A stretch of 64,000 nucleotides of DNA from Salinispira sp. (GCA_965226555.1 CBDDDG010000010.1:529921-593920); one strand, 5' to 3'. Shown: positions 27,170 to 64,000, counted from the stretch's first letter. The notes: generated by a model not told the origin, from the sequence alone. Made by a program: numbers and translations.

Positions 27170-29341
27170 ATGTGTGTTCATTTTATGCGGAGAGGAACCC
27201 TTTTTCTATTCTGCTCAATGTTTATTGTATTGATGGCGGGATGTCCAATGCCGGAACCCAATATGGGGGGGGGGGGGGGGGGGGGTAATGTAAGCCCGCC
27301 GGGCACAATGGATGCCCCAACTCTTGAAGCGGGAGATGAGCAACTCATTGCAACATGGACTGCGCCAACAAACACCGGCGGCAGCGAAATTACCGGCTAT
27401 GAACTGCAATATAGCTCAGATGGCGGAACCACATGGTCAGATCCTCCTATTGAAGTCGCCGCGCTAGCCGCAAAGGCCATCATCTCCGGCCTGAGCAACG
27501 GCAGCAGTTATGAAGTACAGGTACGCGCAGTCAACGCGCAGGGCGCAGGCGGCTGGTCGGACAGCGCATTAGCAAGCCCTGTTGCCGTTCCCCATGCTCC
27601 GAACGCTCCCGGGCTTACCCCGGAAAATAGTCAACTAACAGTTTATTGGACTGCGCCGACCAGCGATGGTGGCAGCGCCATTACCGGCTATGAGCTGCAA
27701 TATAGACAATATAGCTCAGACGGCGGAACCACATGGTCGGATCCTCCTATTGAAGTCGCCGCTCCAGCCACAAAGACCATCATCACCGGCCTAATCAACG
27801 GCAGCAGTTATGAAGTACAGGTACGCGCCGTCAACGCGCAGGGCGCAGGCGGCTGGTCGGACAGCGCATTAGCAAGCCCTGTTGCCGTTCCCGGTGCTCC
27901 CGACTTGCCAAGCCTCACCGTGGAAAATGAGCAACTTCGCATTTCATGGGCAGCGCCGACCAACACCGGCGGCAGCGACATTACCGGCTATGACCTGCGC
28001 TACGCACTAAACAATTCACCCCTGCCGGACGATCCGCAAATTAGCAACACAAGCAATACCTCTCATACCATTATGCAACTGGAAATTGGCAGCCGCTACA
28101 CCGTACAGGTGCGCGGCATCAACGCGCAGGGCAGGGGTTCGTGGTCAGAATCCGCAGCGAAAACATTCCCGCTCATTGCGACACAGGTGCCGGAGGGTAC
28201 GGAGGTCTTTGTCATTCTTTCGACTGTTGACAACGCAATTGCCAATGCCGCAAACCCAAACATTACTGTGGTTCCAGTTACTTCCCCGGCATTAACGGTC
28301 GTCTTACCGACAATTGATGCGGCTACCGGAATTATTATGGTTACCGCAAGCACAAGCCCGGGAACATATACGGTATCTGGTACAGACGGAGGAAGCGAAC
28401 TGTTTGCCCCCGAAAAGTTCTCTGTTACCCTGAGTCCTCCTACTAACGCTGAACTGAAAACAGCGGTAACTAATGGAATATCAAACTGGGGACAAACTGC
28501 CGATCTCAACTACATTCTTACCGCGGCAGTAACGGACATGTCCGAAGTGTTCAAAGATAAAACCGCATTCAATGGAAATATCTCGGGTTGGACTGTCAGC
28601 GCTGTAACGGATATGTCGGAAATGTTCAATAACGCAGACGCATTCAATCGTGATCTTAATAATTGGGATGTCAGCGCGGTAACGGATATGTCGGGGATGT
28701 TCCATCGCACAGACGCATTCAATGGCAATATCTCAAGCTGGAATGTCAGCTCGGTAACAGATATGTCGCAAATGTTCAGTGACACAGACGCATTCAATAG
28801 CAACATCTCGGGCTGGACTGTCAGTAAGGTAACGGATATGTTGGGGATGTTCAATAACGCAAGCGCATTCAATGGCAATATCTCGGGATGGAATGTCAGC
28901 GCGGTAACGAATATGTCGGGGATGTTTGGTAACACAAGCGCATTCAATGGCGACATTTCCGGTTGGGATGTCAGTAAGGTAACGACTATGGCCAGTATGT
29001 TCCAGAGCGCAATCGCATTCAATGGCAACATTTCCGGTTGGGATGTCAGCTCGGTAACGACTATGAGCAATATGTTCGTTTTTACAAGCGCATTCAATGG
29101 CGACATCTCCGGTTGGGATGTCAGCTCGGTAACGACTATGTATTCTATGTTCTTTTTGGCAAGCGCATTCAATCAGAATCTTACTGCATGGGGCGGGACA
29201 GATGAAGGGAGCTTACGGCGTGATCCTAATGATAATAGCAAATATGGAGTAACGGTAACGGATATGTTTACGAGTTCCGGCGTTGTGGATACCGGGGGCG
29301 TGGGTGTTCCCGATTGGTATACTGAGATTATTGCCTATTAA
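27170..29341 (+). CDS. Surface lipoprotein with 3 FN3 domains and DUF285 (BspA-like) repeats
   Basis: Lipobox LMAGC; FN3 motifs W.AP...GGS.ITGY and YEVQVRAVN; ~8 copies of the 26-aa FNGNISGWDVSxVTxM unit. Confidence 0.92.
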   Translation: MCVHFMRRGTLFLFCSMFIVLMAGCPMPEPNMGGGGGGGNVSPPGTMDAPTLEAGDEQLIATWTAPTNTGGSEITGYELQYSSDGGTTWSDPPIEVAALAAKAIISGLSNGSSYEVQVRAVNAQGAGGWSDSALASPVAVPHAPNAPGLTPENSQLTVYWTAPTSDGGSAITGYELQYRQYSSDGGTTWSDPPIEVAAPATKTIITGLINGSSYEVQVRAVNAQGAGGWSDSALASPVAVPGAPDLPSLTVENEQLRISWAAPTNTGGSDITGYDLRYALNNSPLPDDPQISNTSNTSHTIMQLEIGSRYTVQVRGINAQGRGSWSESAAKTFPLIATQVPEGTEVFVILSTVDNAIANAANPNITVVPVTSPALTVVLPTIDAATGIIMVTASTSPGTYTVSGTDGGSELFAPEKFSVTLSPPTNAELKTAVTNGISNWGQTADLNYILTAAVTDMSEVFKDKTAFNGNISGWTVSAVTDMSEMFNNADAFNRDLNNWDVSAVTDMSGMFHRTDAFNGNISSWNVSSVTDMSQMFSDTDAFNSNISGWTVSKVTDMLGMFNNASAFNGNISGWNVSAVTNMSGMFGNTSAFNGDISGWDVSKVTTMASMFQSAIAFNGNISGWDVSSVTTMSNMFVFTSAFNGDISGWDVSSVTTMYSMFFLASAFNQNLTAWGGTDEGSLRRDPNDNSKYGVTVTDMFTSSGVVDTGGVGVPDWYTEIIAY
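27265..27285 (+). repeat. G21 homopolymer (candidate phase-variation tract)
   Basis: 21 consecutive G just after the lipoprotein cysteine region; currently in frame. Confidence 0.85.
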
Positions 29342-29360
29342 CGAGTTGCAATTCAACTCA

Positions 29361-29396
29361 GGCAGGCGCGGAAAAAAATCCGTGCCTGCCTTTTTT
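29361..29396 (+). terminator. Rho-independent terminator
   Basis: GGCAGGCGCGG-loop-CCGTGCCTGCC followed by T6. Confidence 0.85.
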
Positions 29397-29608
29397 CGAT
29401 AGAGACGGCTGCCTGTTTGTTATCTGTCTGCCCGATTCGGCTGCCCATGCGACTGTTGCTGAGACGGGGGGCTAGTCGGCGCTCCGCGCCTGCTCGCCCA
29501 AGCATCCGGCTCACCCAAGCGGCGGGATCAGGTCAATATCCCAAAATAATAAAAATAATTACAAAAATTTTTCATATTCACCATTCATATTTTACCCGTC
29601 TATATAGT

Positions 29609-29824
29609 ATGGGGAAAGATTATATCGATATGGTACATGATAAAATCTGGAAATATGTTTTCGGGAATGCTCAGATATTCCGTGATTTCATATATTCATA
29701 CTTCAACAAAGACCTCGCACGGAGCATGGAGAGCATCAACACAGAGCATACCAGCCCCCGCATTCCCCAATCCCCTGAAAAAAATTCACAAATTTTGCAA
29801 AATTCTCTCAAAAAACATAGTTAA
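29609..29824 (+). pseudogene. Rpn/YhgA N-terminal remnant in the leader
   Basis: MGKDYIDMVHDKIWKYVFGNAQIFRDFIYSYF resembles the Rpn N-terminal HDxxFKxxF motif. Confidence 0.6.
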
Positions 29825-29940
29825 AAATGACTTTTTACCCGTTATAGATATATAAGGGAGAATTCACCATGGGACCATGTCGCCATGGGAGCTCCCCTAT
29901 TAAGAAAAAAACGTTCAAAAAAAATCTTCAGGAGGATTGT

Positions 29941-31077
29941 ATGATCGATTTCAAAGAAAAACCCGCCCCCGTTCCCTACGACCAAGGATACCGCTCCCTA
30001 CTGTTCCAACCCGCAATAATGCTCCAATTTCTTCAACGCTTTGTCGGAGGCGCATGGACGAAAAAACTCCGAACCGAGGATATAACCATTGAAAACGGTA
30101 CCTTTTTTATCGACCATGCGAAAACACGGATGGCCGACATCGTCTGCAAAATCAGGACTCGGGATCACACGGGAGATGTTGCTATCTATGTGCTCCTTGA
30201 GCATCAGTCTGGAGTGGACAAAGACATGCCCCTCCGCATGTCGGAATATACGAATCTGCTCTATCGGAACATTCACCGCTCCGGAGAAATTCCCGATGAC
30301 TGCGAGGTGGTATTTCTGCCCATTGTGTTCTATAATGGTACGCGAAAATGGAAGGTGCCGGGGAATGTCAGAGAGCGGAACACGCGGGAATTCCCGCAGT
30401 ATCTTGCTCCTTTTCCCTACGATCTTATTAACGAGAGCGATTATTCTGCGGAGCAGCTGCAGCAGCGGGGAAGAATGTTTGCGGCTGTCATGTACCTTGA
30501 TCTGTACTCGAAAAATCTACTGAATACGGATTGGGACATTCGGAAGGTGGAGAAAGCGATAGCAGAAATGCTGAATGAGGAATCGCTGGAGCTGATAGAG
30601 GAATTTGTCGGCGTGGTAGATTCGATGTTCGGAATTGTTATAGACTTTGACACGTTAATGAAACAATTACAAAGAACAAAAGAACCGAGAGGTAAGGAGG
30701 TAGCAAAAATGTTCAGAATGAATGCGGAAACATTCAGAGCGCGCATTGCGGAAATGGGTCGGCAGGAAGGACTTCAGGCAGGATTGCAGACAGGTCGTGA
30801 AGAAGGACTTCAGACAGGTCGGCAGGAAGGATTGCAAGAAGGACTTCAGACAGGATTGCAGACAGGTCGTGAAGAAGGACTGCAGACAGGTCGGCAGGAA
30901 GGACTTCAGACAGGATTGCAGACAGGTCGGCAGGAAGGCCGCGCGGAGGGGCATATTGAGGAACGGAGAAAAAACGCCCGCAGTATGTTTTTGGAAGGCT
31001 TGTCGACCGAGGCTGTTCAGAGAATTACCGGGCTGAGCGATGAGGAAATGCGGACAGTGCGGAACGGATCGCATTAA
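29941..31077 (+). CDS. Rpn/YhgA-family PD-(D/E)XK nuclease
   Basis: YDQGYR, RMADIV, YVLLEHQS..DKDMPLRM, PIVFYNGTRKW, G-x-x-E repeats, C-terminal HTH GLSTEAVQRITGLS; GGAGG RBS. Confidence 0.92.
   Translation: MIDFKEKPAPVPYDQGYRSLLFQPAIMLQFLQRFVGGAWTKKLRTEDITIENGTFFIDHAKTRMADIVCKIRTRDHTGDVAIYVLLEHQSGVDKDMPLRMSEYTNLLYRNIHRSGEIPDDCEVVFLPIVFYNGTRKWKVPGNVRERNTREFPQYLAPFPYDLINESDYSAEQLQQRGRMFAAVMYLDLYSKNLLNTDWDIRKVEKAIAEMLNEESLELIEEFVGVVDSMFGIVIDFDTLMKQLQRTKEPRGKEVAKMFRMNAETFRARIAEMGRQEGLQAGLQTGREEGLQTGRQEGLQEGLQTGLQTGREEGLQTGRQEGLQTGLQTGRQEGRAEGHIEERRKNARSMFLEGLSTEAVQRITGLSDEEMRTVRNGSH
30709..31077 (+). CDS. Putative intragenic RpnS-like small protein (in-frame internal start)
   Basis: TAAGGAGGT followed after 7 nt by in-frame ATG 30709. 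Confidence 0.6.
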   Translation: MFRMNAETFRARIAEMGRQEGLQAGLQTGREEGLQTGRQEGLQEGLQTGLQTGREEGLQTGRQEGLQTGLQTGRQEGRAEGHIEERRKNARSMFLEGLSTEAVQRITGLSDEEMRTVRNGSH

Positions 31078-31081
31078 TTGG

Positions 31082-31195
31082 CGCTGCTCGGCCTGCTCAC
31101 CCAAGCCTCCTGCTCGCCATGCGACTGTTGCTGGGGCTAGGGGCTGGTCGGAGGCTTGCGCATCCGGTTCGCTTATGCGGCGGGGTTAGGTCAAA
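31082..31195. repeat. Family B repeat cluster
   Basis: CTCCTGCTCGCCATGCGACTGTTGCTG..GGGGCTGGTCGGAGGC..TTAGGTCAA. Confidence 0.8.
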
Positions 31196-31259
31196 TAGTA
31201 GAAAGTTTTGCATAAATAAAATTTTGCCTTGAAAAATTGTGCAGAGCACAATTTTCTGT

Positions 31260-31689
31260 GAGAATATCGGGTCAATAAAAGACTATTCAAAAGAAACAAT
31301 TGCCATACTCAAAGATATGATACAGAATGAGAGTGCCGAAAATAAAGAGGTATTGTATGACAAAGTTTTGCATTCTGCAAAACTTTCTACAAAGTGCGAG
31401 AATGCTCCGCACATAAAAGCATTCCAAATGAGAAACTTTTGCTACTGGAAATTGTGCAAGCACAATTTTCCAATGCAAAAGTTTCTGTGAATGGATAAGC
31501 ATACGGTTTTATGGTACGATAACGAAAGATGAGGCAAAGAAATTATTTGCTGCTCGGACCCAGCGTGATCATGCAATCAAAATGTTCAAAGAGGGTCTGT
31601 CTATGGACCTTATTCATAAGATTACCGATCTCAGCAGGGATGAAATTCGAGCATTTCAGAAAAACGGTAGTGAAAACGGTAAAAAGTAA
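31260..31689 (+). pseudogene. Rpn C-terminal-like fragment interrupted by a family A element
   Basis: ENIGSIKDY...EVLY joins EWISIRFYG...AIKMFKEGLSMDLIHKITDLSRDEI when 31360-31487 and one TGA are removed. Confidence 0.65.
31360..31487. mobile_element. Family A triple-hairpin element, reverse orientation relative to 10091
   Basis: C-B-A hairpin order, flanked by TGA on both sides. Confidence 0.8.
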
Positions 31690-31919
31690 CAGCACAGCCG
31701 CGCATTGCCCCCATGTGTCTGTTGCTGAGGATGGGGTGCTGAGGATGGGGTCAGATCACAGTAATATCCCCCCAACGTCCGTAGTCTCATCCTTTGATAT
31801 GTGTTCCTGAATGTAGTATACTCATTGAAAGGTTTACTACTGGAAATTGTGCACGCACAATTTTCCAATGCAAAACTTTCTGTTATTTAATGACCACATA
31901 AGGATCGGAGGGAAACAAT

Positions 31920-32162
31920 ATGAAAACAAATATTGTTGATATAGGTAACTCAAAAGGCATTTTGGTATCACAAGAAATCTTACAACAATGCCATATTACC
32001 GATAAGGCTGATATGAGTGTTCATAAAAACCGTATTGTGTTAGCACCCGTTAAAAAAGTAAGAAAAAACTGGGATCGTGCTTTTCGAAAAATGGCGGAAC
32101 GGAAAGAAGATACACTTTTAATGGAATCAGTCCCTTATAACAACGAAGACTGGCAATGGTGA
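31920..32162 (+). CDS. AbrB/MazE-family antitoxin
   Basis: IGNSKGIL motif, RKNWDRAF, ends EDWQW; GGAGG RBS. Confidence 0.88.
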   Translation: MKTNIVDIGNSKGILVSQEILQQCHITDKADMSVHKNRIVLAPVKKVRKNWDRAFRKMAERKEDTLLMESVPYNNEDWQW

Positions 32163-32262
32163 TAAACCAATACGAAATTTATCTGGTTTGCTTAGATCCG
32201 ACCATCGGTGCAGAAACCAAAAAGTCAAAGATATCATTAAAGAAATGTTGGTGGATGAATAA
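32156..32262 (+). pseudogene. MazF/PemK toxin remnant with large internal deletion
   Basis: N-terminus MVINQYEIYLVCLDPTIGAETKKS fused out of frame to the C-terminus VKDIIKEMLVDE*; RP catalytic core missing. Confidence 0.8.
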
Positions 32263-32288
32263 AATCAATTACTGAGACTATGAGAAAC

Positions 32289-32660
32289 TTTTCCAATGCA
32301 AAAGTTTCCTGTACAAAGTTTTGCAAAATGCAAAACTTTCTATAAAATAGGAGAATGCTAAGCACAAAGAAAGCATTCCTGACGGACGCATGGGCGAGCA
32401 GGAGGCGCAGCCTCCGACCAGCCCTCGGAAACTTTTGCTACTGGAAATTGCGTTCTGCACAATTTTCCAATGCAAAAGTTTCCTGTACAAAGTTTTGCAA
32501 AATGCAAAACTTTCTATAAAATAGGAGAATGCTAAGCACAAAGAAAGCATTCCTGACGGACGCATGGGCGAGCAGGAGGCGCAGCCTCCGACCAGCCCTC
32601 GGAAACTTTTGCTACTGGAAATTGCGTTCTGCACAATTTTCCAATGCAAAAGTTTCCTGT
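32289..32660. repeat. 174-bp perfect tandem duplication of a composite A+B repeat
   Basis: TTTTCCAATGCAAAAGTTTCCTGT starts at 32289, 32463 and 32637; each unit has a family B copy nested in family A. Confidence 0.92.
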
Positions 32661-32684
32661 ATAAATTCATAAAAGGAGGTTTTT

Positions 32685-33716
32685 ATGAAAAAAACTTTAT
32701 GGATCGCTCTGTTGCTAATTATTGCTATTAGTAGCGGAGCATTGTTTGCTGGTGGAGGCAGTGAGTCCGGAGAAGCATCCGGGCGGCATGCCTTCGTGTT
32801 TAAGAATACCGGAAATCCTTATGGCGATAAGCAGATGGAAGGTTTCGCGGATGGTATACGGGAACTGGGGCTTGAACCCATTACCCGCGCTCCCGATCAG
32901 CCCAGTGCTGAGGCTCAAATTCAGATTATTGAGCAGCTCATTGCGCAGGGGGTCGATTCCATTACCATTACTGCCAACGATTTTGATGCCCTGCAGCCGG
33001 TGCTTGAAAAGGCCCGCGATGCCGGCATTGCGGTACTCTCGGCCGACTCGGCGCTGAATCCTGCAAGCCGCATCACCCACATTAATCAGGCTGACTCGGA
33101 GAGGATCGGAAGAACCCTCATTCAGGCTGCCTACGATATGGCGGGAGGCGCCGGAGAAATTGCCATTCTTTCGGCAACAAGCCAGGCTTCCAATCAGAAT
33201 CTGTGGATTGAGTGGATGGAGAAGGAGCTTGCGGAGAATGCCGATAAGTACAAGGATATCGATCTGGTAGCCGTTGTGTATGGCGATGATCTGCGCGACA
33301 AGTCGGTGAGTGAGACTGAAGCTCTGCTCCAGCGCTTTCCGAATTTAAAGGTCATTATTGCGCCCACCACGGTAGGTATTGCAGCTGCCGGACGGGTAAT
33401 TACTGACCGCGGTCTCATTGGGCAAATAAGTGTTACCGGTCTCGGGTTGCCGTCTGAAATGGCTGAGTACATTGAGAACGGGGCAACGCCCTATATGTTC
33501 CTGTGGAATCCTGTTGATGTTGGTTATCTTTCCGCCTTTGCCGCGGTTTCCGCTTCCGAAGGGGAGCTGAATGGCGCTGTGGGCGAAGGGTTTTCTGCCG
33601 GACGTCTGGGCAATTTTGAGGTGGTTCAAGCCGGCGATGGCGGTACTGAGGTACTCCTTGGCGCGCCCTTCAAGTTTGAACCGGGCAACATTGCCGAATG
33701 GAAGACTGTCTACTAA
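32685..33716 (+). CDS. Rhamnose ABC transporter substrate-binding protein
   Basis: KNTGNPYG, ILSATSQASNQNLWI, IIAPTTVGI, LWNPVDVGY. Confidence 0.92.
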   Translation: MKKTLWIALLLIIAISSGALFAGGGSESGEASGRHAFVFKNTGNPYGDKQMEGFADGIRELGLEPITRAPDQPSAEAQIQIIEQLIAQGVDSITITANDFDALQPVLEKARDAGIAVLSADSALNPASRITHINQADSERIGRTLIQAAYDMAGGAGEIAILSATSQASNQNLWIEWMEKELAENADKYKDIDLVAVVYGDDLRDKSVSETEALLQRFPNLKVIIAPTTVGIAAAGRVITDRGLIGQISVTGLGLPSEMAEYIENGATPYMFLWNPVDVGYLSAFAAVSASEGELNGAVGEGFSAGRLGNFEVVQAGDGGTEVLLGAPFKFEPGNIAEWKTVY

Positions 33717-33729
33717 GCCGACCGGTTGT

Positions 33730-33778
33730 CCGCGCAGCTACATGACGAGCCGCGCAGCTACATGACGAGCCGCGCAGC
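33730..33778. repeat. 20-bp tandem repeat x2.5
   Basis: CCGCGCAGCTACATGACGAG repeated. Confidence 0.8.
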
Positions 33779-33805
33779 GGCAGGTAGTATAGGTAGATAT
33801 AATAG

Positions 33806-33835
33806 AGGCTCGGGGAATTCCCCGAGCCTTTTTTT
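33806..33835 (+). terminator. Rho-independent terminator
   Basis: AGGCTCGGGG-AATT-CCCCGAGCC followed by T7. Confidence 0.88.
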
Positions 33836-33872
33836 GAGCGTAAAGTCCTCGCTCGGCGGTTAATGCTGCGGC

Positions 33873-35363
33873 TTAGTTCTGCGGGTTGTAGTTCTGCGGG
33901 GGGTGATGTTTGCGGATGAGCGCCCGTCCTTCTGCAATGGATGATATTTCCCCGCAGGTCAGGGACTGCATGAGCAGGTTGCCTAAGGCGGTTGCCTCCG
34001 CGGGGCCCGCGCTGTTTGTAATGCCGGTTTCGTTTGCGGTGAGCTGGCAGAGCAGTTCATTCCGGCAGCCGCCTCCTATTATATAGAGGGTTTTCGCGCG
34101 GGAACCGGTGAGTTCGGCGAGAATGTCCAGATTTTCTGCGTAGCACTTCGCAAGGCTTTCCATAATAACCAACGCTGTTTCGCCCATGTTTTGAGGCGGC
34201 TGCTGGGCTGTTTCCCTGCAGAATTCCTGCACCCGCTGAACCATACCATTGCCCGGCTCGCCGGGTTTGAGGAAGCGCGGGTCATCAACATCGATGAGCG
34301 AAGGGCGCAGCATCCGATTGCCCTCTGCCGCTGCATCTGCCGTTTCCTTGGCTGCGCTGACAATGCTGCCATAATCCGGGAGCCCGCCATCTGCCCACTC
34401 GCGGCGGCATTCCTGCAGAATCCATAACCCCATAATGTTTTTCAGAAATCGGAAACCCCCATCCGCCCCGCCCTCATTGGTGAAGTTGGCTGCCAGCGCT
34501 GCCTCGTTTATGAGCACCTCGTCCGACTCACGTCCCAGCAGGCTCCATGTCCCGCTTGAGAGATAGGCGTAAGTGCTGTTTTCGCTGCCACCGCCGCCAA
34601 TGGAACCGCCGCCGGTGTGGGCGGCGGTTTCGGGGAGGGGCAGGGCTGCCACTGCCGAGCCGGTGTCGTGGCAGGCGGGGGCAATAACTTTTACCCCGGA
34701 CGGAGCGCCAACGGCGCGGCGGATATCATCATTCAATGACCCCAGAACTGTGCCCGAGGGCACCACCCTGCCGAAGAGCTGCCGTGGAATGTTCAGCTCG
34801 TCAATGAGATCCCATGCCCAGTCCCGGGCAAGCGGATTATAAAGCTGGGTGGTGGTGGCATTGCTGAATTCGTTGGCTTTCACACCGCAGAGCCAGTAAT
34901 TGAGCAGGTCGGGAATGGTCAGGAAACTGCGGGCGGCTGCCAGCCGGGCACTTCGGTTTTCGACTTCTTCCCGGAGTTGATAGATGGTGTTAAAGGGCAG
35001 AAACTGAATGCCGGTTGCGCCGTAAATCCGCATATCGCCCAGCATGGCCCGCACCGATTCCATGATTCCATCGCTTCGGGCATCACGATAATGGAAGGGA
35101 TTGCCCAGCATATCGCCCGAGGCATCGAGCAGGGCATAATCGACCCCCCATGAATCGATGCCGATGGAAACAATGCGCTTCCCGTAGCGGGTGAACGCTG
35201 CCCGGCAACCCGCCAGTATTTCGGCATATAATGCCGCTGCGTCCCAGTACAGGTGGCGGACGCGCAGTAATGGGGTGGGAAAACGGTGAATAACATCGAA
35301 TGTTGTCAGATCACCGGCAATGACCCGACCGCTTTCGGCTCCTAAATCGATTGCAATGTGCAT
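33873..35363 (-). CDS. rhaB: Rhamnulokinase
   Basis: AIDLGAESGR, GIDSWGVDY, CHDTGSAV, SSGTWSLLG, FLKNIMGLWILQEC; ATG 35363 with GAGGAG RBS. Confidence 0.93.
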   Translation of the reverse strand: MHIAIDLGAESGRVIAGDLTTFDVIHRFPTPLLRVRHLYWDAAALYAEILAGCRAAFTRYGKRIVSIGIDSWGVDYALLDASGDMLGNPFHYRDARSDGIMESVRAMLGDMRIYGATGIQFLPFNTIYQLREEVENRSARLAAARSFLTIPDLLNYWLCGVKANEFSNATTTQLYNPLARDWAWDLIDELNIPRQLFGRVVPSGTVLGSLNDDIRRAVGAPSGVKVIAPACHDTGSAVAALPLPETAAHTGGGSIGGGGSENSTYAYLSSGTWSLLGRESDEVLINEAALAANFTNEGGADGGFRFLKNIMGLWILQECRREWADGGLPDYGSIVSAAKETADAAAEGNRMLRPSLIDVDDPRFLKPGEPGNGMVQRVQEFCRETAQQPPQNMGETALVIMESLAKCYAENLDILAELTGSRAKTLYIIGGGCRNELLCQLTANETGITNSAGPAEATALGNLLMQSLTCGEISSIAEGRALIRKHHPPQNYNPQN

Positions 35364-36553: not shown

Positions 36554-36554
36554 G

Positions 36555-48255: not shown

Positions 48256-49731
48256 CTACTCATACCATGACGGAATCAGATCACCTATTACGCCGGAATC
48301 CTTAAACATATCTGTTGTGGTTCCGGTATATTTGCCATTAGCATTAAGCGTCCAATGATCCCCCCACGCCTCAAGATCTTGATTGAATGCGCTTAAGTCA
48401 AAGAACATATATGATATATTCATTACCGAGCTGACATCCCAGCCGGAAATATCGCCATTGAAGACGACTGCACTATAGAACATAGTTGTCATATTCGTTA
48501 CTGAGCTGACATCCCAGCCGGAAATATCACCATTGAATGCGCCTGTGCCAGCAAACATACCGTTCATATTCGTTACCGCGCCAGTATCCCAGAGCGAGAT
48601 ATCGCCATTGAATGAGTTTTTGTTACCGAAGACAGTGGACATATCCGTTACTGCCGCGGTAACAATGTAGTTGAAATCGGCAGTTGGTCCCCAAGCAGCT
48701 ATCCCGTCAGTTACCGCTGTGTCCAGTTGAGCGTTAGTAGTAGGACTCACAGTAACAGAGAAATACTCGGCAAAGAGTATGTCTTCAGTTTCTGTTTCAC
48801 CATATACCAGATATATTCCTGCCGTTGTATTTTCGGTAACCGTAACAATTCCGATACTTTCATTAAATACATGAGCTATATTAATTATTGGTGGGGTGAA
48901 CGCGCCCGGCGGAGTTGTGGAGGTTACCGTAATGTCTCCAGACATTTCATCAACCCCGTGAGTGCCCGTGATCAAATAAACGCTGAGGTTCTCGCTGGCA
49001 ATAATAACGGCATTAACGGCATCTGAAAGGCTCACAGATTTTGCCGTACCCGCGGGGGTCTGTATTCTTAACGGCATTGCTGTTGCGGATTCAGACCAGT
49101 TACCACTGCCAACCGCATTGACGGCGCGCGCCTGTACGTCGTAGGCAGTGCCGTTTGTCAGGTCCGTAATGCTGTGGTCGTGCGTGCCCGGTGCCGGAGC
49201 GATTTTCATCCATGCTCCGCTGCCTGCGCGATACTGCAATTCGTACTCGGTAATGGGGCTGCCGCCATCATCCGGCGTAGTCCATCTCACGATGATCCGC
49301 CCAGTGCCCGCATAAAGGGTTGGAGCAGCCGGCGCGTCAGGAACAGCGGCAGGGGTTGCAGCGGCAGATTCCGACCAGTCGCCAGCGCCGACTGCATTGA
49401 CGGCGCGCGCCTGTACGTCGTAGGCAGCGCCGTTTGTTAGGCCGGTAATGGCGTGGCTTGTGTTTGTGCCGATGCCTTCGGTAATTTCCGCCCATGCTCC
49501 CTCGCCTGAGCGATATTGCAGCTCATACCCGGTAATGGGGCTGCCGTTGTCGGCAGGCGCATCCCAATCCACGGTAAGCGCGGCGTCTCCGGCGGTGAGC
49601 GTGAGACCGGTCGGCGCATCGGGAACGGATCCCGGGGTTGGCTCGGGTTCCGGCATCGGACATCCTGCAATCAACATAATAAACATTGAGCAGAGTAGAA
49701 AACGGCTTCCCTTGTATAATTTGACATTCAT
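48256..49731 (-). CDS. Surface lipoprotein with 2 FN3 domains and DUF285 repeats
   Basis: LIAGC lipobox, signal nearly identical to the 27170 gene; ATG 49731 with GAGGAG RBS. Confidence 0.9.
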   Translation of the reverse strand: MNVKLYKGSRFLLCSMFIMLIAGCPMPEPEPTPGSVPDAPTGLTLTAGDAALTVDWDAPADNGSPITGYELQYRSGEGAWAEITEGIGTNTSHAITGLTNGAAYDVQARAVNAVGAGDWSESAAATPAAVPDAPAAPTLYAGTGRIIVRWTTPDDGGSPITEYELQYRAGSGAWMKIAPAPGTHDHSITDLTNGTAYDVQARAVNAVGSGNWSESATAMPLRIQTPAGTAKSVSLSDAVNAVIIASENLSVYLITGTHGVDEMSGDITVTSTTPPGAFTPPIINIAHVFNESIGIVTVTENTTAGIYLVYGETETEDILFAEYFSVTVSPTTNAQLDTAVTDGIAAWGPTADFNYIVTAAVTDMSTVFGNKNSFNGDISLWDTGAVTNMNGMFAGTGAFNGDISGWDVSSVTNMTTMFYSAVVFNGDISGWDVSSVMNISYMFFDLSAFNQDLEAWGDHWTLNANGKYTGTTTDMFKDSGVIGDLIPSWYE

Positions 49732-49769
49732 GATATACTCCTCATGGTAACAATTATAAAAGATTGTTG

Positions 49770-49915
49770 TATAGAAAGTTTTGCATTGGAAAATTGCTTG
49801 CGCAATTTCCAGTTTGGAAAATTGCTTGCGCAATTTCCAGTTTGGAAAACTTTCGTATAGTATCATTTTAAGAAAATCTATGCAACAATAAAATTTTGCA
49901 AAATGCAAAAAAGTT
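49770..49915. repeat. Family A repeat cluster with internal duplication
   Basis: TTGGAAAATTGCTTGCGCAATTTCCAGT x2 and AAATTTTGCAAAATGCAAAA. Confidence 0.8.
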
Positions 49916-57214: not shown

Positions 57215-57229
57215 GAATACATATATATA

Positions 57230-58615
57230 GTGAGGATACGGCATATGAGTAATTTATCTACAAAAAGGTTCAGGCAGGACCTGTTGCGATCGGCATTGGC
57301 ACCCATAGCGCTTATATTGCTATACGGATTTTTTGGCATATTCGGCAGAAATTTCTTTTCCTACAATTCTCTGGTGAATGTTATTGACGCATCGTATTAC
57401 ATTGGTTTCATTTCCATTGGGGTTACCTTTGTTATTATATCCGGCGGCATTGATCTTTCGGTTGGAACCGTAATGATGTGCGGCGCTATTGTCGGGGGAA
57501 CCGCATACAAGTCATGGGGATGGCCAATTGAGGCATCGCTTGTGCTCATTATTCTTGTCTGTATTGCCTTCGGTTTCTTTAACGGGTTCATGGTATCCCG
57601 CCTGAAATTGCCGCCCTTTATTGCCACTCTCGGTACCATGATGATTTCCCTAGGGGTTGGTTCAATTGTATCGCAGGTTCGAAGCGCCACATTTCCCGTG
57701 CGCTCGCATGAAGACGGCTGGTTCAAGAATATTTTTAAAATTATTAATGAGGACGGCTTTGCCATACCCACCGGAGCAATTCTTCTCGCTGTAGTAGCCA
57801 TTCTTGCGCATATTATTCTTACAAAGACAAAAATGGGGCGTTATATTTATGCAATTGGCAGTAATAAGGAAGCCGCTCGCCTTTCAGGTGTGAATGTGGA
57901 GTTCTGGGAGATGATGGCCTATGTCGTTGCAGGCACCTGCGCCGGAATTGGGGGCATTTCCTTTGCAGCGGTGTACACAACGGTTATTCCCGCTCAGGGG
58001 CAGGGCTTTGAGCTCTTTGCCATTGCCGGAGCGGTTATTGGAGGCACATCGTTATCGGGAGGAGTTGGTACAATTTTCGGAACAATTATTGGCGTGTTCA
58101 TTATGTCTGTTCTGAGTGTGGGACTCCCGTCCATGGACCTTCAGTCACATTATCAGGCCTTTTTCACTGGCGTGGTCGTTGTGGGAGCGGTACTTCTCGA
58201 TATGTACCGTAATAAGAAAACAGTCGCTGCGAAAACTGAAAATATTTCCAAAAAAAATACTTGGATATACACATTGTGTTTGATTTTTTTAGGCGTATTT
58301 GGCATTCACCAATTTTATGTCGATAAACCAAAACGCGGCATACTCTATTTAGTCTTATTTATTTGCGTTCAACTTAATGTTGGTTTTATTGCTAGCTTAC
58401 TTGCACCTGAGCTCGGCATAATCGTTACCGTGCTACTCATTAGTTTATTGAGTGGTCTTGTTCTGAATGATTTATTCCGACTTGGATTTGCTGATCCGAA
58501 AGATGGGAGCGGATGTATCTTGAAAAGGATAAAAGCCGCGAGAATATTAAGCGCTAGTTTTGCTATTGTGGTATCTTTTTCACTGGTGATTCTGGCAGCA
58601 ATCCTCAATGCATAA
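57230..58615 (+). CDS. Sugar ABC permease with C-terminal TM2-like extension
   Basis: GGIDLSVG, YAIGSN, GTSLSGG, then LIFLGVFGIHQFY..GILYL. Confidence 0.88.
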   Translation: MRIRHMSNLSTKRFRQDLLRSALAPIALILLYGFFGIFGRNFFSYNSLVNVIDASYYIGFISIGVTFVIISGGIDLSVGTVMMCGAIVGGTAYKSWGWPIEASLVLIILVCIAFGFFNGFMVSRLKLPPFIATLGTMMISLGVGSIVSQVRSATFPVRSHEDGWFKNIFKIINEDGFAIPTGAILLAVVAILAHIILTKTKMGRYIYAIGSNKEAARLSGVNVEFWEMMAYVVAGTCAGIGGISFAAVYTTVIPAQGQGFELFAIAGAVIGGTSLSGGVGTIFGTIIGVFIMSVLSVGLPSMDLQSHYQAFFTGVVVVGAVLLDMYRNKKTVAAKTENISKKNTWIYTLCLIFLGVFGIHQFYVDKPKRGILYLVLFICVQLNVGFIASLLAPELGIIVTVLLISLLSGLVLNDLFRLGFADPKDGSGCILKRIKAARILSASFAIVVSFSLVILAAILNA

Positions 58616-58698
58616 TTGAGAATTCTTGGAAATAACGGGGACTCGTTCCCTATTATAGTGGGAAACCTTGTTTCCCTAAAAAATTTAGGAGGTTTTTA

Positions 58699-59790
58699 AT
58701 GAAGAGGTTCATTTTAACCATCACAAGCGTAATGTTTATTACTTTTCTCGCACTGCCGGTTTTCGCTGGCGGAGCTAACGAAGGGGAGGTATACATTCCG
58801 GTTATATCAAAGGGATTTCAGCATGACTTCTGGCAGGCCGTAAAACGGGGAAGTGATGATGCCGCAGCTGATCTTGGGGTCACAATAGTTTTTGAGGGTC
58901 CTGAGGGTGAGGCAGCAGTTCAGGATCAGGTAATTATGCTCAAGAATGCTCTCGCAAAGGATCCTTCTGCTATTGCTCTCGCAGCTCTTTCAACAACAGC
59001 GGTTGTTGACCAGCTTGAAGAGGCGATCCGCAGAAACATTCCTGTTATCGGTTTCGACTCCGGCGTTCCCGACGCTCCGGACGGTTCAATTTATGCCAAT
59101 GCTTCCACCGATAATATGGCAGCAGGCGGAATTGCGGCTGAAGAAATGTTCAATGTTATTAAGGCCGATATCGAAGCAGCCACGAGCCGCAATCCGGTAA
59201 CCATCGTTGTATTCAATCAGGATGCTTCAGGTGAATCGTTACTCGGAAGAGGTAAGGGTTTCCGCGACAAGCTGGTTGATCTTATCGCAAATAACTCATC
59301 TATGAGCCGTAATGATATCGCGGTAGTCGGTAACCCGGCATACATTGCTTCCGACAACCCGACATCGGGCGACAAGGTCATCATTGACATGGTTGTACCC
59401 GCCACATCGGGTACTCAGGATGTTGTATCTGCGGCAAACGCAATTTTAAACCGCGTAACTGACGATAATGTACTCGGGATATTCTGTTCTAATGAAGGAA
59501 CAATTGGAGGCCTTCTCTCGGCTACTAATGATGGCGCAGACCTTGCCTCACGGTACAGCGATCTTATAGTCATCGGATTTGACGCGGGTATAAGTCAGAA
59601 AAATGCCGTGCGTCAGCAGCTTGTGTATGGTTCCATAACCCAGGATCCGTATCAGATCGGCTATCAGGCTGTTGAACTTGCCTACAAGGCTTCACAGGGT
59701 GAATCGGTAGAGGATGTTGATACCGGAGCGCGTTTCTATAACTATCAAAACATAGATGACCCGGCTATTGCGCCGCTTCTCTATGATTGA
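58699..59790 (+). CDS. Sugar ABC transporter substrate-binding protein
   Basis: SKGFQHDFWQAV, IGFDSG, ITQDPYQIGY. Confidence 0.92.
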   Translation: MKRFILTITSVMFITFLALPVFAGGANEGEVYIPVISKGFQHDFWQAVKRGSDDAAADLGVTIVFEGPEGEAAVQDQVIMLKNALAKDPSAIALAALSTTAVVDQLEEAIRRNIPVIGFDSGVPDAPDGSIYANASTDNMAAGGIAAEEMFNVIKADIEAATSRNPVTIVVFNQDASGESLLGRGKGFRDKLVDLIANNSSMSRNDIAVVGNPAYIASDNPTSGDKVIIDMVVPATSGTQDVVSAANAILNRVTDDNVLGIFCSNEGTIGGLLSATNDGADLASRYSDLIVIGFDAGISQKNAVRQQLVYGSITQDPYQIGYQAVELAYKASQGESVEDVDTGARFYNYQNIDDPAIAPLLYD

Positions 59791-59851
59791 TTCTTCAGAG
59801 ATTGATTCCAGAAGGAATTGATTCTACAAGATCCGTGTAAAGCAAACGCAC

Positions 59852-59884
59852 AGGGCTGTCTCTTTTTGGGAGGCAGCCCTTTTT
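59852..59884 (+). terminator. Rho-independent terminator
   Basis: AGGGCTGTCTC..GAGGCAGCCC followed by T5. Confidence 0.8.
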
Positions 59885-59903
59885 CTGTTATGGATAGAGC
59901 TTC

Positions 59904-60803
59904 TTATAGGCAGAGGGGGACAGCATATGAATTGCACAGCATCTGCGGCCAGTGGGCAGAGAGTCCGCCGCCGCCGAGCAGCGACAATTCCTGAAAGGGC
60001 GCGTATTCCCGAACTATTTCAGCAATAATGGCGAGGTTATGGTTTACTCCTTCAAGGAGCGCGCGGGCCATATCTGCCAAACCATGCTCCTGCGAGAGAC
60101 CCAGCCAAGCAGCGCGGCATTCGGTATTCCACCAAGGAGAGCGTTCTCCGAGAAGATAGGGAAGAAACATGAGCCCCCTGCTTCCCGCTGCCGAAGCTGA
60201 GGCGAGGCGGTCAAATTCCTCGGATGGATCACCATCAACATGGGATAAAAATTTCCGGCAGAACCATTCAACGGCTGCCCCGGCAGTCTGCATGACGCCA
60301 AGGGGATGGTACAGGCCGGGAACGGCATGGGCGAAGGTAACAACCCGCATATGAGGATCGGCAACAGGCGCGCTGCTTGTGTTCGCGATCCAGGAAGTTG
60401 TGCCGATGTAGTTATAGGCGGCGCCCGGCTCAACCGATGCAGCCCCAACTCCGGCGCAGATACCATCGCCTGCTCCCGCAACCACAACAGCGCTCTCAGG
60501 CAGGCCTGTGAGTCCGACAGCCCAGGCGCCTTCAGCGCCCTTTGAGGTAGTAATGCCGAATCCGGCCATCATATGCCCGCTCAGGCCAAGTGTTACGACC
60601 CTTTTCCGCTCTTTTTCGGGGAGTTTCGCAAGGCAGGTTAAGAGGGTACTCCACCAGTCATTGGGTCTTTGCTCTGCCCGATTTTCTGCGGGGTACATGG
60701 TCGTGTATCCCGCATCGGACTGGGAGATAATTTTCCCGTCTGCGGTGAATAGTGTTGTTTTCATGGAAGAGGTTCCAAGATCAATGGAAAGAATGATGCT
60801 CAT
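59904..60803 (-). pseudogene. Xylulokinase-like FGGY kinase with internal deletion and C-terminal truncation
   Basis: IDLGTSSMK, SGHM, AGAGD, IGTTS, FLPYLLGERSP and GGG present, but only 299 aa versus ~500 typical; the segment after SGHM is missing. Confidence 0.8.
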
Positions 60804-61022
60804 GCTTGCCTCCGCTATTCTATCTCATAAAAGTCCTAAAATAGTAGCACAAAATTGATATTGACATCACGCGCATAAAAAACGGCGTGCAACGCCGACC
60901 AGCCGTCTTATCGAAAAAAGTCTATCAACATACCCTCCCTGAGCATTCCTGAAAGAACTGGTATGTGAGGTTGATCCAGATGTTGATATTATCCGCTCTG
61001 CGCGCAGGTCGATCGGCGCCAA

Positions 61023-61298
61023 TTAATGCGATCCGTTCCGCACTGTCCGAATTTCCTCATCGCTCAGCCCGGTAATTCTCTGAACAGCCTCGGTCGACAA
61101 CCCTTCCAAAAACATACTGCGGGCCGTTTCTCGAATGCCTTCAACCCGGCCTTTCAGAATACCTTTCTCAATGCCCTCAGCCCGGCCCTTTGAGATACCC
61201 TGCTCAAGACCCTCAACACGGCCTTTCAGAATACCTTTCTCCATACCCTTCGCAATGCCTTCCCTTACGAAGGCGTTGGTTATATTATATGTCCGCAT
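61023..61298 (-). CDS. Putative intragenic RpnS-like small protein
   Basis: GAAGGAGA followed by AAACAAT and in-frame ATG 61298 (MRTYNITNAF). Confidence 0.55.
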   Translation of the reverse strand: MRTYNITNAFVREGIAKGMEKGILKGRVEGLEQGISKGRAEGIEKGILKGRVEGIRETARSMFLEGLSTEAVQRITGLSDEEIRTVRNGSH

Positions 61299-62048
61299 AT
61301 TGTTTTCTCCTTCAGGATATAATTTCCTGTTAATTTTCTCAAACTGTTCATACAGTCCCAAATCTTTTAGATAACCCAGCACACTCTCTGCCAGATCAGT
61401 AAAGTCTTGTGAAGACAGACCGTTCAGGAGCTGCGCAACCTCTTTCAGCCCCTCAGCGTTCATTTTATTGTCTCTCATAATATACCACAACGCAGTTGAT
61501 GTATATCGTTTTCCATCGTAGCGCAATGCCAACTGCTTCTTTGTCATTCGCCCCAGATCGCGCACAATGTACGACACTTTCACCCTGACATCTACCGTGC
61601 CTTCGGTAAGGGATTCGGAAGATGGGTTTTCATGCGAACTGTAAAATGTGAGTGGGAGGTTCCATTTCTTTTTTCCATGGTAGAACAGCAGTATATAGAT
61701 AGCATCATTTTCATTGTACACATTGCTGTTTCTGAGGGCATATTGATAATTATCGATTTGAGTGAGAACGTGTTTATTCAGGTAGCTTTTGTGTTCAATA
61801 ATGAACAGGGCCTTCCGGTCGGGGTCTGAGAGGAAGGGGGCGCTGACAACGAGATCGCAGTGAAGGTTCTTTTTTCCCGCAATGTAGCTGGGGGTTTCAA
61901 TGCGGATTTTGTCCATGTCCAGCTTGGCAAGCGTTGTATCCTCACAGAACAGTCCCAGCAGGTCGGGAATCAGCCGGGGGGTTCTGTAGTAGGCGATCTT
62001 GAAGGCTATGTCGTGGATATGGCCTGTGCTGTGGGATGATTTTTTCAT
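61023..62048 (-). CDS. Rpn/YhgA-family PD-(D/E)XK nuclease
   Basis: HDIAFK, HCDLV, FIIEHKS, LFYHGKKKW, G-x-x-K/E repeats, same C-terminus as the 29941 gene. Confidence 0.92.
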   Translation of the reverse strand: MKKSSHSTGHIHDIAFKIAYYRTPRLIPDLLGLFCEDTTLAKLDMDKIRIETPSYIAGKKNLHCDLVVSAPFLSDPDRKALFIIEHKSYLNKHVLTQIDNYQYALRNSNVYNENDAIYILLFYHGKKKWNLPLTFYSSHENPSSESLTEGTVDVRVKVSYIVRDLGRMTKKQLALRYDGKRYTSTALWYIMRDNKMNAEGLKEVAQLLNGLSSQDFTDLAESVLGYLKDLGLYEQFEKINRKLYPEGENNMRTYNITNAFVREGIAKGMEKGILKGRVEGLEQGISKGRAEGIEKGILKGRVEGIRETARSMFLEGLSTEAVQRITGLSDEEIRTVRNGSH

Positions 62049-62049
62049 A

Positions 62050-62412
62050 AATATTCCTCTTACATCTATAACGGGTAAAAAGTCATTCTTGACTATGTTT
62101 TTGGAAGGGATTTGAAAGAATGTTGTGTTTTTTTCGGGGAGTCGGGAATGGGGGGCTGGTATGCTCTGTGTCGATATACTTTTTGCTCATACCATATAGA
62201 CGGGTAAAATATGAATGGTGAATATGAGAAAGTTTTTCAAAAAGTTTTATTATTTTGAGATATTACTATTGACCTGATCCGGACGCATGGGCGAGCAGGA
62301 GGCGCAGGCATCCGACCAGCCCCGTCTCAGCAACAGTCGCATGGGCGAGCAATCGAAAAAAGGCAGGCACGGGGGCTGGTCGGCGCCCCGCGCCTGCCTG
62401 AGTTGAATTGCA
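62050..62412 (-). repeat. Second copy of the conserved leader block
   Basis: Homologous to 29345-29865; includes family B repeats at 62281-62350. Confidence 0.9.
62356..62399 (-). terminator. Rho-independent terminator
   Basis: Same stem as 29361-29396; loop replaced by the family B fragment GGCGCCGACCAGCCC. Confidence 0.8.
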
Positions 62413-62448
62413 ACGTTTCAATAGCCCCTGCGGGCTATGAAACTACTC

Positions 62449-64000
62449 CTAATACCATGACGGCGTTGTTGTTACGCCGGAATCCCTAAACATATCTGTT
62501 GTGGTTCCGGTGTATTTGCCACTGTCATTGAGCGTCCAATGAGCCCCCCACTCCTCAAGATTTTGATTGAATGCGCTTGCTGTCAGGAACATATAGGACA
62601 TATCCGTTACCGCGACAGGCTCCCATTGGGAGATATTGCCATTAAATAAAGGTAGGTTCTGGAAAATCCTAGACATATCCGTTACTGCCGTGGTAACAAT
62701 GTAGTTGATATCGGCATAGGTGTAGTCGTCACCGGTTTTGCCGGTATCGTTGCCATCGCCAGCAGGATCAATGACTGCTGTGCCCCAAGTTGTTATCCCA
62801 TTATTTACCGCTGTTTTCAGTGCAGCGTTATCAGCAGGACTCACGATAACATAAAAATACTCGGCAAAGAGTATGTCTGTACCTCCAGATTCAGTGCCGT
62901 ATACCAGATATGTTCCTGCCGTTGTCGTCGCGGTAACCGTAACCATGCCGGTACCCGAATCAACTGTCGGAATGGCAACCCCAGCGGGCGTAGTTGCGGC
63001 GGTAACCGTAATGACTCCTGATCCACTAACAGCGAGAGTGCCCGGTTCCACCACGGTTAAAGCAACGGTTGGGCTCTCATTGGTAATAATGGCATTAGCG
63101 GCAGCCGAAAGGTTTACCGTTGCTGCCGTACCCGCGGGAGTCTGTGTCGATGAAATTATTAGTGCCAGCATTTCCGTTGCGGATTCAGACCAGCCGCCAG
63201 TACCCACCGCGTTAACGGCGCGTACCTGTACGTGGTAGCTGGCGCCGTTTGTCAGCCCAGTAATGGTGTGGCTTGTGCCGGTGATGCCGGAGGTAATGGG
63301 CGTCCATGTGGTTCCTCCGTCCGCGCTATGGCGAAGGTGATACCCGGTAATGGCGCTGCCGCCGTCATCGGTTGGCGCTGTCCATGTCGCGGTGATCTGG
63401 GCATTTCCGACTGTGAGCGTGGGAGCAGTTGGCGCGGCAGGAACAGTGGAAGTTGAGAGAGGGGTTGCAGTGGCAGGCTGCGACCATGCGCCAAGCAATG
63501 TATCCTCATTTTCTGCGCGCACCCGTACATCGTACGAGCTGCCGCCTATCAGCCCGGAAATGATGTGGCGTGTAGCAGTGCCGTCATTAATAGTGGCGGT
63601 GTCCGTTGAGTCGTCCGTTGGCCAGCTTGCGGTGCTTAGTTTGTGCTGCACATGGTACGTGGTAATGGCGCTGGCACCGGCGGCAATAGTCGGCATTTCC
63701 CAGGTAACAGTTAGCTTCCCGTTCCCCGCAACAAGGGTGGGCGTATTCGGCGCTGGAGGATGTGATGCGCTTGGTGTTGCAGCGGCAGATGTCGACCAGT
63801 TCCCCGCGCCCTGCGCATTGACCGCGCGCACCCGCACATCGTAACTGGTCGTGTTGTTGAGTTCGGTAATGGTGTGGCTTGTTACAGTACCGCCGATAGT
63901 GGCGGTATCGGTTGTGCCGTCCGCTGGCCAGTCTGCGGTGCTTTCTTTGTGCTGCACATGGTACTCGGTAATTTCGCTGCCGCCGTTATCGGGCGCTGCC
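62449..64000 (-). CDS. FN3-repeat plus DUF285 surface protein (5' end outside the window)
   Basis: At least 3 FN3 domains, short DUF285 block, C-terminus nearly identical to the 48256 gene. Confidence 0.9.
   Translation of the reverse strand, partial: AAPDNGGSEITEYHVQHKESTADWPADGTTDTATIGGTVTSHTITELNNTTSYDVRVRAVNAQGAGNWSTSAAATPSASHPPAPNTPTLVAGNGKLTVTWEMPTIAAGASAITTYHVQHKLSTASWPTDDSTDTATINDGTATRHIISGLIGGSSYDVRVRAENEDTLLGAWSQPATATPLSTSTVPAAPTAPTLTVGNAQITATWTAPTDDGGSAITGYHLRHSADGGTTWTPITSGITGTSHTITGLTNGASYHVQVRAVNAVGTGGWSESATEMLALIISSTQTPAGTAATVNLSAAANAIITNESPTVALTVVEPGTLAVSGSGVITVTAATTPAGVAIPTVDSGTGMVTVTATTTAGTYLVYGTESGGTDILFAEYFYVIVSPADNAALKTAVNNGITTWGTAVIDPAGDGNDTGKTGDDYTYADINYIVTTAVTDMSRIFQNLPLFNGNISQWEPVAVTDMSYMFLTASAFNQNLEEWGAHWTLNDSGKYTGTTTDMFRDSGVTTTPSWY

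Follow-up and report, generated by a model that had tools for sequence, protein, structure and literature searches.

Mosaic rpn nuclease genes with shared promoter-like blocks and tails, coupled to adhesin-like lipoprotein genes, in a Salinispira genome

The Rpn/YhgA-like genes (PF04754) are toxin-antitoxin (TA) genes in which a PD-(D/E)XK nuclease body carries an internal ribosome-binding site and start codon (PMC10327210, PMC5350276). In Escherichia coli, RpnL is the toxic nuclease and RpnS, translated from the internal start, its antitoxin (PMC10327210; see also the legend of Fig. S1 of Zhong et al., 2023, in the supplement of PMC10400941), and a commentary by Koonin suggests that repeat variation would prevent inhibition in trans (PMC10400984). 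The natural role of these proteins is disputed, with promotion of recombination and toxicity against phages as the two main proposals. Here we describe two rpn loci in a stretch of 64,000 nucleotides from Salinispira sp. (GCA_965226555.1, CBDDDG010000010.1:529921-593920; hereafter the window), which forms the end of contig C10 in a genome of 2.98 Mb and 26 contigs. Each lies behind a gene for an adhesin-like lipoprotein, and both belong to a genome-wide set of about 145 rpn bodies that constitutes a natural experiment on this dispute.

Three other systems invite comparison. The vls system of Borrelia burgdorferi likewise diversifies a spirochaete surface lipoprotein by short, homology-driven conversion, with a mean conversion tract of 16.4 bp in vlsE, and it uses one expression site and 15 silent cassettes, is unidirectional, and needs RuvAB and MutL (PMC9159922). 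The DUF285/PARCEL (BspA-like) families (PF03382, TIGR02167) share with the genes described here the 25-amino-acid (aa) repeats, the lipoprotein anchor and the expansion to many copies. In integron cassette arrays and shufflons, too, varying coding bodies follow a common promoter or are enclosed by flanks held in common.

A first-pass annotation of the window had recorded the same order of an FN3/DUF285 gene, a hairpin with terminator, a GC-rich repeat, a conserved leader and an rpn gene at 27170-31085 (plus strand) and at 61016-64000 (minus strand), and this order is present at both places (Table 1). It had also described near-identical tails on divergent nucleases, which we find as well: the tails show 2 differences over about 108 nt, while the whole proteins are 29% identical including the tail, and representative family A and B bodies 20% over 117 aa. 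The leaders, said to be alignable, are so in blocks, with a mean column identity of 75%, but the alignment is broken by a 111-nt gap plus smaller gaps. BLAST searches of the genome returned 278 and 307 matches for the two leader queries and 187 and 143 for the two tail queries, so the likeness of the modules is not due to chance. The leader itself comprises the hairpin and terminator (TERM module), the GC-rich repeat, a block P1, a stub of ~45-50 codons and a block P2. It is not non-coding throughout, as the stub is the 5' end of a gene from a fifth rpn family, E. An intact E gene stands behind P1 on contig C1, and most E pieces end at codons 40-60. The rpn gene of locus A most likely starts at 29941, behind a ribosome-binding site, rather than at 29869.

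Table 1. Features of the two rpn loci and a third lipoprotein gene; positions are those of the whole window.
Feature	Position	Strand	Remark
Sugar ABC permease	25961..26968	+	Pfam match; left flank of locus A island
Adhesin-like lipoprotein A	27170..29341	+	In order: lipobox (read from sequence), 3 FN3 domains, linker, DUF285/PARCEL repeats
Poly-G tract, 21 nt	27265..27285	+	Near adhesin A start; in frame in assembly
TERM module, locus A	29343..29397	+	Small hairpin and intrinsic-terminator-like hairpin
GC-rich dispersed repeat, locus A	29442..29494	+
P1 block	29526..29607	+	E-family rpn upstream region; putatively promoter-like
E-family rpn 5' stub	29609..29747	+	~45 codons; fossil part of leader
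P2 block	29748..29852	+	Promoter-like; common to families A, B, D; left homology arm for body swaps
rpn family A, intact RpnL	29941..31077	+	PF04754 68 bits, cut-off 21; longest open reading frame from 29869
Predicted internal RpnS-A	30709..31077	+	Head specific to its family, then 4-aa repeats and shared tail; strong ribosome-binding site
Shared tail, allele t1, locus A	30971..31085	+	Right homology arm
GC-rich repeat, then palindromic hairpin elements	31114..31485	.
E-family rpn 3' stub	31465..31690	+	Own tail type t4
Addiction-module antidote, weak	31920..32162	+	TIGR02609 below cut-off; broken partner stub next
Palindromic element	32289..32656	.	Exact 174-nt duplication; island right end
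Sugar-binding protein	32685..33716	+	Right flank of locus A island
Third FN3/DUF285 lipoprotein	48256..49908	-	Without TERM module or rpn
Shared tail, allele t1, locus B	61016..61129	-
Predicted internal RpnS-B	61023..61298	-
rpn family B, intact RpnL	61023..62048	-	PF04754 45 bits, cut-off 21
P1 and P2	62060..62277	-	E stub almost wholly deleted
TERM module and GC-rich repeat, locus B	62293..62413	-
Adhesin-like lipoprotein B	62449..64000	-	5' part lost at contig end

The two loci are a small sample of a much larger set. At least 140 matches to PF04754 were found in the genome (150 of 164 candidates scored), and 143 bodies cover 60% or more of a reference (67 in B, 48 in A, 17 in C, 9 in D, and two singletons), with four further full-span genes in family E; the genome total is about 145 bodies in five families. 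They are organized in 109 arrays, and rpn-related DNA makes up 6.3% of the genome, with a further 8.5% in adhesin genes. By comparison, 30 relatives, none of the same genus, hold 0-6 PF04754 matches and 0-14 DUF285 matches each. The five family references are 20-33% identical, and outside the lineage the best relatives of family A do not exceed 38% identity. NCBI assigns to Salinispira sp. two B-type proteins with 87-89% identity, and among the matches listed for a housekeeping protein the best, at about 50%, come from Spirochaetaceae/Treponemataceae. Two single-copy rpn genes, F (C21:298600) and G (C16:70565), are 43% identical to each other, have related tails, and are possibly unexpanded or newly arrived families. 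The leader motif had no match in the Joint Genome Institute (JGI) metagenomes, where family B retrieved only distant rpn genes, and family A had none in viral contigs. Large expansions of related PD-(D/E)XK genes occur in Orientia, Wolbachia and treponemes, so that a count of ~145 may be no record; among Rpn systems it stands against 26 bodies, given as a high example though not as a stated maximum (PMC10327210). The described rpn genes share with ours variable numbers of 4-aa repeats, a three-helix tail, orphan RpnS genes, tandem arrays and a lack of transposon ends (PMC10327210, PMC5350276), but here the genes are mostly dispersed rather than only in tandem, 87 of the 109 arrays being single genes, and they are tied to surface lipoproteins rather than to defence islands.

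The nuclease bodies have probably been exchanged between shared flanks. Families A, B and D share P2 until a few bases before their own ribosome-binding regions (an edge read by eye), and C has its own related block. P1 precedes 79 of 124 A, B and D bodies, five of which also have an E 3' stub behind them, as at locus A, where the A cassette is flanked by the 5' and 3' stubs of one E gene. A promoter scan gave nothing above chance (4 vs 3.4), so it is by their position that P1 and P2 suggest promoters. At the other end, tails are distributed independently of body family: t1 and t2 alleles occur at 29 and 19 in A and at 33 and 15 in B (p=0.52), the same pool is found in C and D, tails are as alike between families (identity 0.892) as within them (0.893), 44 pairs drawn from different families have identical tails, and the Mantel correlation of tail and body is about 0. 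A further tail, that of E, has been taken up by 12 B copies, and three B or D copies likely keep their own old tail. In E. coli, by contrast, orphan RpnS cluster with their own parent (PMC10327210), whereas here five families share tails. A-type repeat units occur in 27 of 64 B genes, and B-type units in 1 of 49 A genes, indicating that crossovers fall inside the repeats.

A tandem array on contig C12 offers a direct snapshot of a body swap: over 459 nt its two neighbouring units are 99% identical until P2 ends, one then has a B body and the other a D body, and the pair reunites within the repeats to agree until about 27 nt past the stop codon, with near-identical tails. Yet none of 2844 cross-family pairs, compared with 13 of 2307 same-family pairs, has in common both the upstream 250 nt and the 60 nt past the stop. 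Homology past the rpn stop ends at variable places, and the right junction floats inside the 12-bp repeats. The suggested exchange of different bodies between shared flanks is thus supported, whereas a dedicated system with fixed flanks is not.

At a finer scale, every part of the unit, whether promoter, body, tail or adhesin, reads as a fine mosaic. Among 47 A and 63 B copies, linkage between variable sites decays from r2 values of 0.40 and 0.28 (at most 3 bp apart) to 0.07 and 0.04, near background, by 16-25 bp, and P2 behaves similarly; overall, linkage collapses within 10-25 bp. Five palindromic insertions in family B show all four gametes in 10 of 10 pairs. Of 102 fourfold sites 51 are invariant and 16 exceed 0.3, a spectrum incompatible with mutations arising independently along a star tree. 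Identity above 98% is reached by just 2 of 1081 pairs in A and 4 of 1953 in B. Some structure persists, in that the longest shared tracts measure 192 and 156 nt, where shuffles give 133 and 96. Short-tract gene conversion is the likely cause of these patterns, and the tract scale reported for vlsE (PMC9159922) corresponds to the scale at which linkage collapses here.

The lipoprotein genes are patchworks too. Adhesin A is covered to 87% by exact pieces from 11 paralogs, and adhesins in general have a median coverage of 58-70% by exact pieces of at least 25 nt from about 15 paralogs; a few blocks, combined in mosaic fashion, also make up their promoters and signal peptides. In total, 97 of 131 DUF285/FN3 genes have a recognizable lipobox and their own upstream region. 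Poly-G tracts lie in many of the signal-peptide regions and are likely phase-variation switches, as is probably the tract of adhesin A. As a pattern in the sequence, rather than as switching in real time, this is the short-tract segmental conversion of lipoprotein genes seen in vls, but the single expression site with silent cassettes is replaced by 102 dispersed DUF285 genes. These complete genes, with promoters and likely poly-G switches of their own, appear to act both as donors and as recipients, and the nuclease genes are shuffled too. The surface proteins appear to be diversified by conversion without the silent-cassette layout known from pathogenic spirochaetes.

The coupling of rpn to adhesins, noted at the two loci, holds across the genome. 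Directly behind a co-oriented DUF285/FN3 gene we find 52 of 107 rpn arrays, compared with a background of 131 such genes among 1981 (6.6%; p about 1e-32), and a further 9 arrays stand head to head with one; two arrays without an upstream gene were excluded, and shadow open reading frames in the leaders (more than 15% covered by modules and shorter than 350 aa) were removed, the unfiltered count being 47 of 108. Seen from the other side, an array comes after 44 of 102 DUF285 genes and E-family DNA after four more, a trait that, like the FN3 domains in front of the repeats, sets these genes apart from other DUF285/PARCEL families. The coupling rides on the terminator module, with a full rpn gene behind 37 of 56 adhesins that have it and 7 of 46 that lack it. 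An adhesin gene is missing upstream of roughly every second array, and family C is also found behind a second lipoprotein family (5 arrays), a repeat family of 38 members that is its usual upstream partner. Within the genome, then, the module is not confined to two copies, its flanks are more alike than its bodies, and its linkage to adhesins recurs at other loci.

Beyond this genome the coupling is rare. Among 80 distant rpn loci from metagenomes, of which 48 span 3 kb or more, a single one has a DUF285 lipoprotein gene upstream, at a distance of 147 nt; none of 21 rpn loci in other Spirochaetia has one within about 1.5 kb; and among 30 overlapping DUF285 loci of 13 genomes, one has rpn 1 kb downstream, behind a nucleotidyltransferase pair (G376:C244). 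In the spirochaete genome G014 the two genes lie 7.6 kb apart in one island, and on an unrelated metagenome contig (L227:1770-5161) two DUF285 open reading frames are directly followed by an rpn gene with the same layout of head, repeats and tail. Searches of an open-access library found no paper linking DUF285 with Rpn, nor the scale of copying or the sharing of tails and promoters across families with replacement of bodies; the component parts are of known kinds.

Assignment of the A and B proteins to the Rpn/YhgA-like PD-(D/E)XK nucleases follows from their PF04754 scores, together with predicted structure. Against TIGR01784 they score 47.2 and 46.4, below the cut-off of 52.1, which family D exceeds (55.3). 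D31, D83, E104 and Q106 are near-invariant in 118 sequences and correspond to the acidic residues and E-x-K/Q motif of PD-(D/E)XK enzymes. A model of an A-family protein (predicted local distance difference test, pLDDT, 86) has a PD-(D/E)XK-like core, for which VIA-align returned PD-(D/E)XK nucleases in the top rows (Z 6.5-8.0) and Foldseek no match at E<=0.001. The modelled tail agrees with the RpnS layout, a three-helix bundle whose long helix carries the 4-aa repeats, and overlays E. coli RpnA-S (PDB 7TH0) over 46 of 46 residues (Z 7.0, root-mean-square deviation 1.6), a Z value that is middling for a small helical domain. Searching the PDB with the RpnS-A sequence recovered no Rpn chain, and PADLOC 2023 offered no model matching the Rpn system.

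All five families and the orphan RpnS genes have a strong, conserved ribosome-binding site and ATG near the C-terminus. The predicted RpnS consists of a family-specific head, 4-aa repeats and a tail from the common pool, with repeats that are nearly unique to each copy (49 of 49 in A, 61 of 64 in B) and lengths that differ by multiples of 4 aa (48 of 49 and 57 of 64). The C-terminus, named in the first-pass annotation as the variable part in E. coli, is therefore hypervariable here in its repeats but shared over its last ~35 aa. By analogy with E. coli, each gene would encode a toxic RpnL and an internal antitoxin RpnS, whose specificity could be kept by the family-specific head and the copy-specific number of repeats despite the common tail; the copy-unique repeats fit Koonin's idea of avoiding inhibition in trans, in which a shared tail is not described (PMC10400984).

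Of the A-D bodies, 71 of 133 are intact and 62 broken, mainly by hairpin elements of about 100-130 bp or by deletions, with one recurring insertion just before the RpnS ribosome-binding site in families A, B and D. Most intact copies retain the catalytic-type residues, the ratio of nonsynonymous to synonymous polymorphism (pN/pS) is 0.19 in A and 0.26 in B, the same in broken and intact copies, and the RpnS frame is kept in 47 of 50 A and B copies with a broken body. To judge from these signatures, the nucleases look alive. Its five nuclease families, its traces of past exchange and its more than 140 RpnS sequences, almost all of them distinct, make it testable in this genome which part of RpnS sets specificity, how about 70 intact toxins are tolerated, and whether Rpn cleavage can drive short-tract conversion.

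How might this arrangement have arisen? We suggest that the founding unit was an adhesin, a terminator, P1 and rpnE, that a cassette driven by P2 entered the E gene and left its stubs, and that A, B and D (and C, with its own promoter) gained common tails through crossovers within the 12-bp repeats; a common promoter and tail would then have let every body take the place of any other, whatever the locus. The best reading is that of an unprogrammed exchange network, where each copy may both give and receive sequence, rather than of a site-specific cassette system. We put at somewhat better than even the chance that the copies of this genome-wide rpn family became mosaic through short-tract homologous conversion, which swapped whole nuclease bodies between the shared promoter and tail, with Rpn as the presumed source of the breaks. 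When overexpressed, Rpn promotes replacement without RecA, and the 3'-OH ends that it leaves are suited to template switching (PMC5350276). By analogy, cleavage would supply breaks, and their repair by template switching between paralogs would spread the unit via dispersed repeats, reshuffle the adhesins and rearrange the chromosome.

Several observations weigh against this proposal. In E. coli the chromosomal rpn genes are dispensable for basal RecA-independent recombination (PMC5350276). Adhesins are equally patchy beside intact and broken rpn genes (22 vs 22, p=0.58), and their excess of patchwork over rpn-less adhesins falls to p=0.05 after matching for the TERM module, to which we note that a diffusible enzyme need not act in cis on the neighboring adhesin. 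RecA and MutS are present, so that ordinary recombination among many repeats could suffice, and the one insertion sequence (IS) family variable enough to serve as a control has 9-13 distinct copies, a number from which it cannot be concluded that fine mosaicism is peculiar to this system. The equal pN/pS of broken and intact copies may reflect past selection whose traces conversion has spread; mixing is incomplete, as the 5' half of the bodies still correlates with the 3' half (Mantel r 0.27 and 0.50); and IS elements, too, lie at synteny breaks (7 of 8).

The nearest contender, which we regard as unlikely yet serious, makes Rpn a passenger, amplified as antiphage TA modules or hitchhiking with a growing adhesin family in variable islands, while host RecA-type conversion, acting on any multicopy DNA, does the shuffling. 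It would accommodate the presence of RecA, the lack of a cis effect of intact rpn on adhesin patchiness, the proximity of DUF285 to rpn or other TA-like genes in unrelated spirochaete DNA (L227, G376, G014), and the near-unique RpnS, expected under phage-driven repeat variation (PMC10327210). It accounts less well for the breakage of 62 of 133 bodies, many through insertions spread between copies, or for other IS families being near-identical or linked over a longer range, though this is a weak control. Moreover, linkage is lost within 10-25 bp at 6-8% divergence with MutS present, which is finer than expected of classical RecA recombination.

A bolder extension of the favored conversion network seems rather doubtful to us: that Rpn TA nucleases have been domesticated as the engine of decentralized surface variation, by conversion across more than 100 adhesin genes. 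Dozens of self-neutralized nucleases, interchangeable through a common promoter and tail, would then break DNA, and their addictiveness would guard the adhesin loci against loss and let them colonize new sites.

Spread as a composite element, with Rpn as the mobilizing enzyme and the adhesin as cargo, is improbable. In the comparison with relative G006, which rests on 2.8 of 3.87 Mb of this one distant genome, 15 of 45 islands lie between genes that are adjacent there, and locus A splits the permease and binding-protein pair, which is adjacent (70-171 nt) in four relatives with close orthologs; two other samples diverge right after the permease stop (one low-depth contig each), and neither of the two 30-nt loose ends at that point matched anything informative in the genome. 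The units compared show no terminal inverted repeats, target duplications or fixed ends, the left end being mosaic and the right variable, and so nothing of an insertion sequence or composite transposon; given that empty sites come only from distant relatives, a short target duplication could be missed. Nor do rpn genes in general have such ends (PMC10327210). Both rpn without adhesin and adhesin without rpn are common, and the scarcity of pairs above 98% identity is unlike near-identical IS copies.

Programmed site-specific exchange of the integron or shufflon kind, at fixed recombination sites, is more improbable still. Families A, B and D do leave P2 at the same few bases, a left edge that is fixed because homology ends there, and the genome has three matches to the tyrosine recombinases (PF00589), but the right edge floating in the repeats largely refutes it. 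Single-nucleotide polymorphisms in P2, bodies and tails assort freely, so that exchange reaches down to single sites; the recombinase matches are found on C2 and C12, at a distance from most of the 109 arrays, which as a class have none linked even though one match (C2:12550-13053) neighbors an island; and there is no layout of silent donors and expression site. That the mosaic is an artefact of assembly or polishing in a mixed-strain sample is hardly credible, for although the genome is flagged as 6.67% contaminated and the comparison used contigs rather than raw reads, with some repeat alleles of the window unseen there, eight B-type proteins of other assemblies recombine alleles of this very pool in ways of their own, with 0-5 novel residues and 9-23 differences from the copy nearest to each. 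The same conclusion is favored by the synonymous excess, the exact match of the unique flanks in runs X1/X2, the recurrence of module junction types in short-read contigs and blocks far shorter than a read.

The islands as a whole are enriched at synteny breaks relative to G006 (29 of 45 intervals vs 66 of 190 matched boundaries, p=3.5e-4). Palindromic hairpin elements of 50-170 bp form about 338 clusters in the genome, which in the window include those at 5825-5878, 10094-10216, 12161-12214, 31198-32656 and 49774-49854. Of these clusters, 55 lie in rpn genes and 1 in a conserved gene; those inside rpn occupy few recurring sites, often before the RpnS ribosome-binding site and some with imperfect 2-nt duplications. 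A RAYT/HUH transposase was considered as their mobilizer, and PF01797 was not found in this genome (93.5% complete). Hairpin or GC-rich repeats follow 58 of 164 RpnS stops, compared with 62 of 761 conserved genes, and thus put homology on offer for ectopic copying.

Near-identical DNA occurs in metagenome runs labelled as cave and sponge (in one sponge run, 636 nt with 7 differences), and a host-associated life may be inferred. Sponge symbionts classified as Salinispira have been described, with transposases, fibronectin, DUF285 and nucleases unmentioned in the main text as excerpted (PMC12478362). Genes like gyrB and dnaA are duplicated at the start of C1 and the end of C12, which suggests overlapping contigs or a second strain in the bin.

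Elsewhere in the window, the antidote-like gene of the locus A island and the broken stub beside it (31920-32275) look like another TA remnant, the start of the stub presumably resembling a MazF/PemK toxin. A lipoprotein-like gene of the 38-member repeat family (18073-21300) is split by an IS (19375-20838), and four open reading frames of 408-430 aa at 2005-7142 have no Pfam match; judged by length, they may correspond to a four-member paralog cluster in this part of C10. Directly downstream of the rpn gene of locus B, an FGGY kinase (59904-60803) has only 299 aa through internal loss, its N-domain covering 82 of 245 positions.

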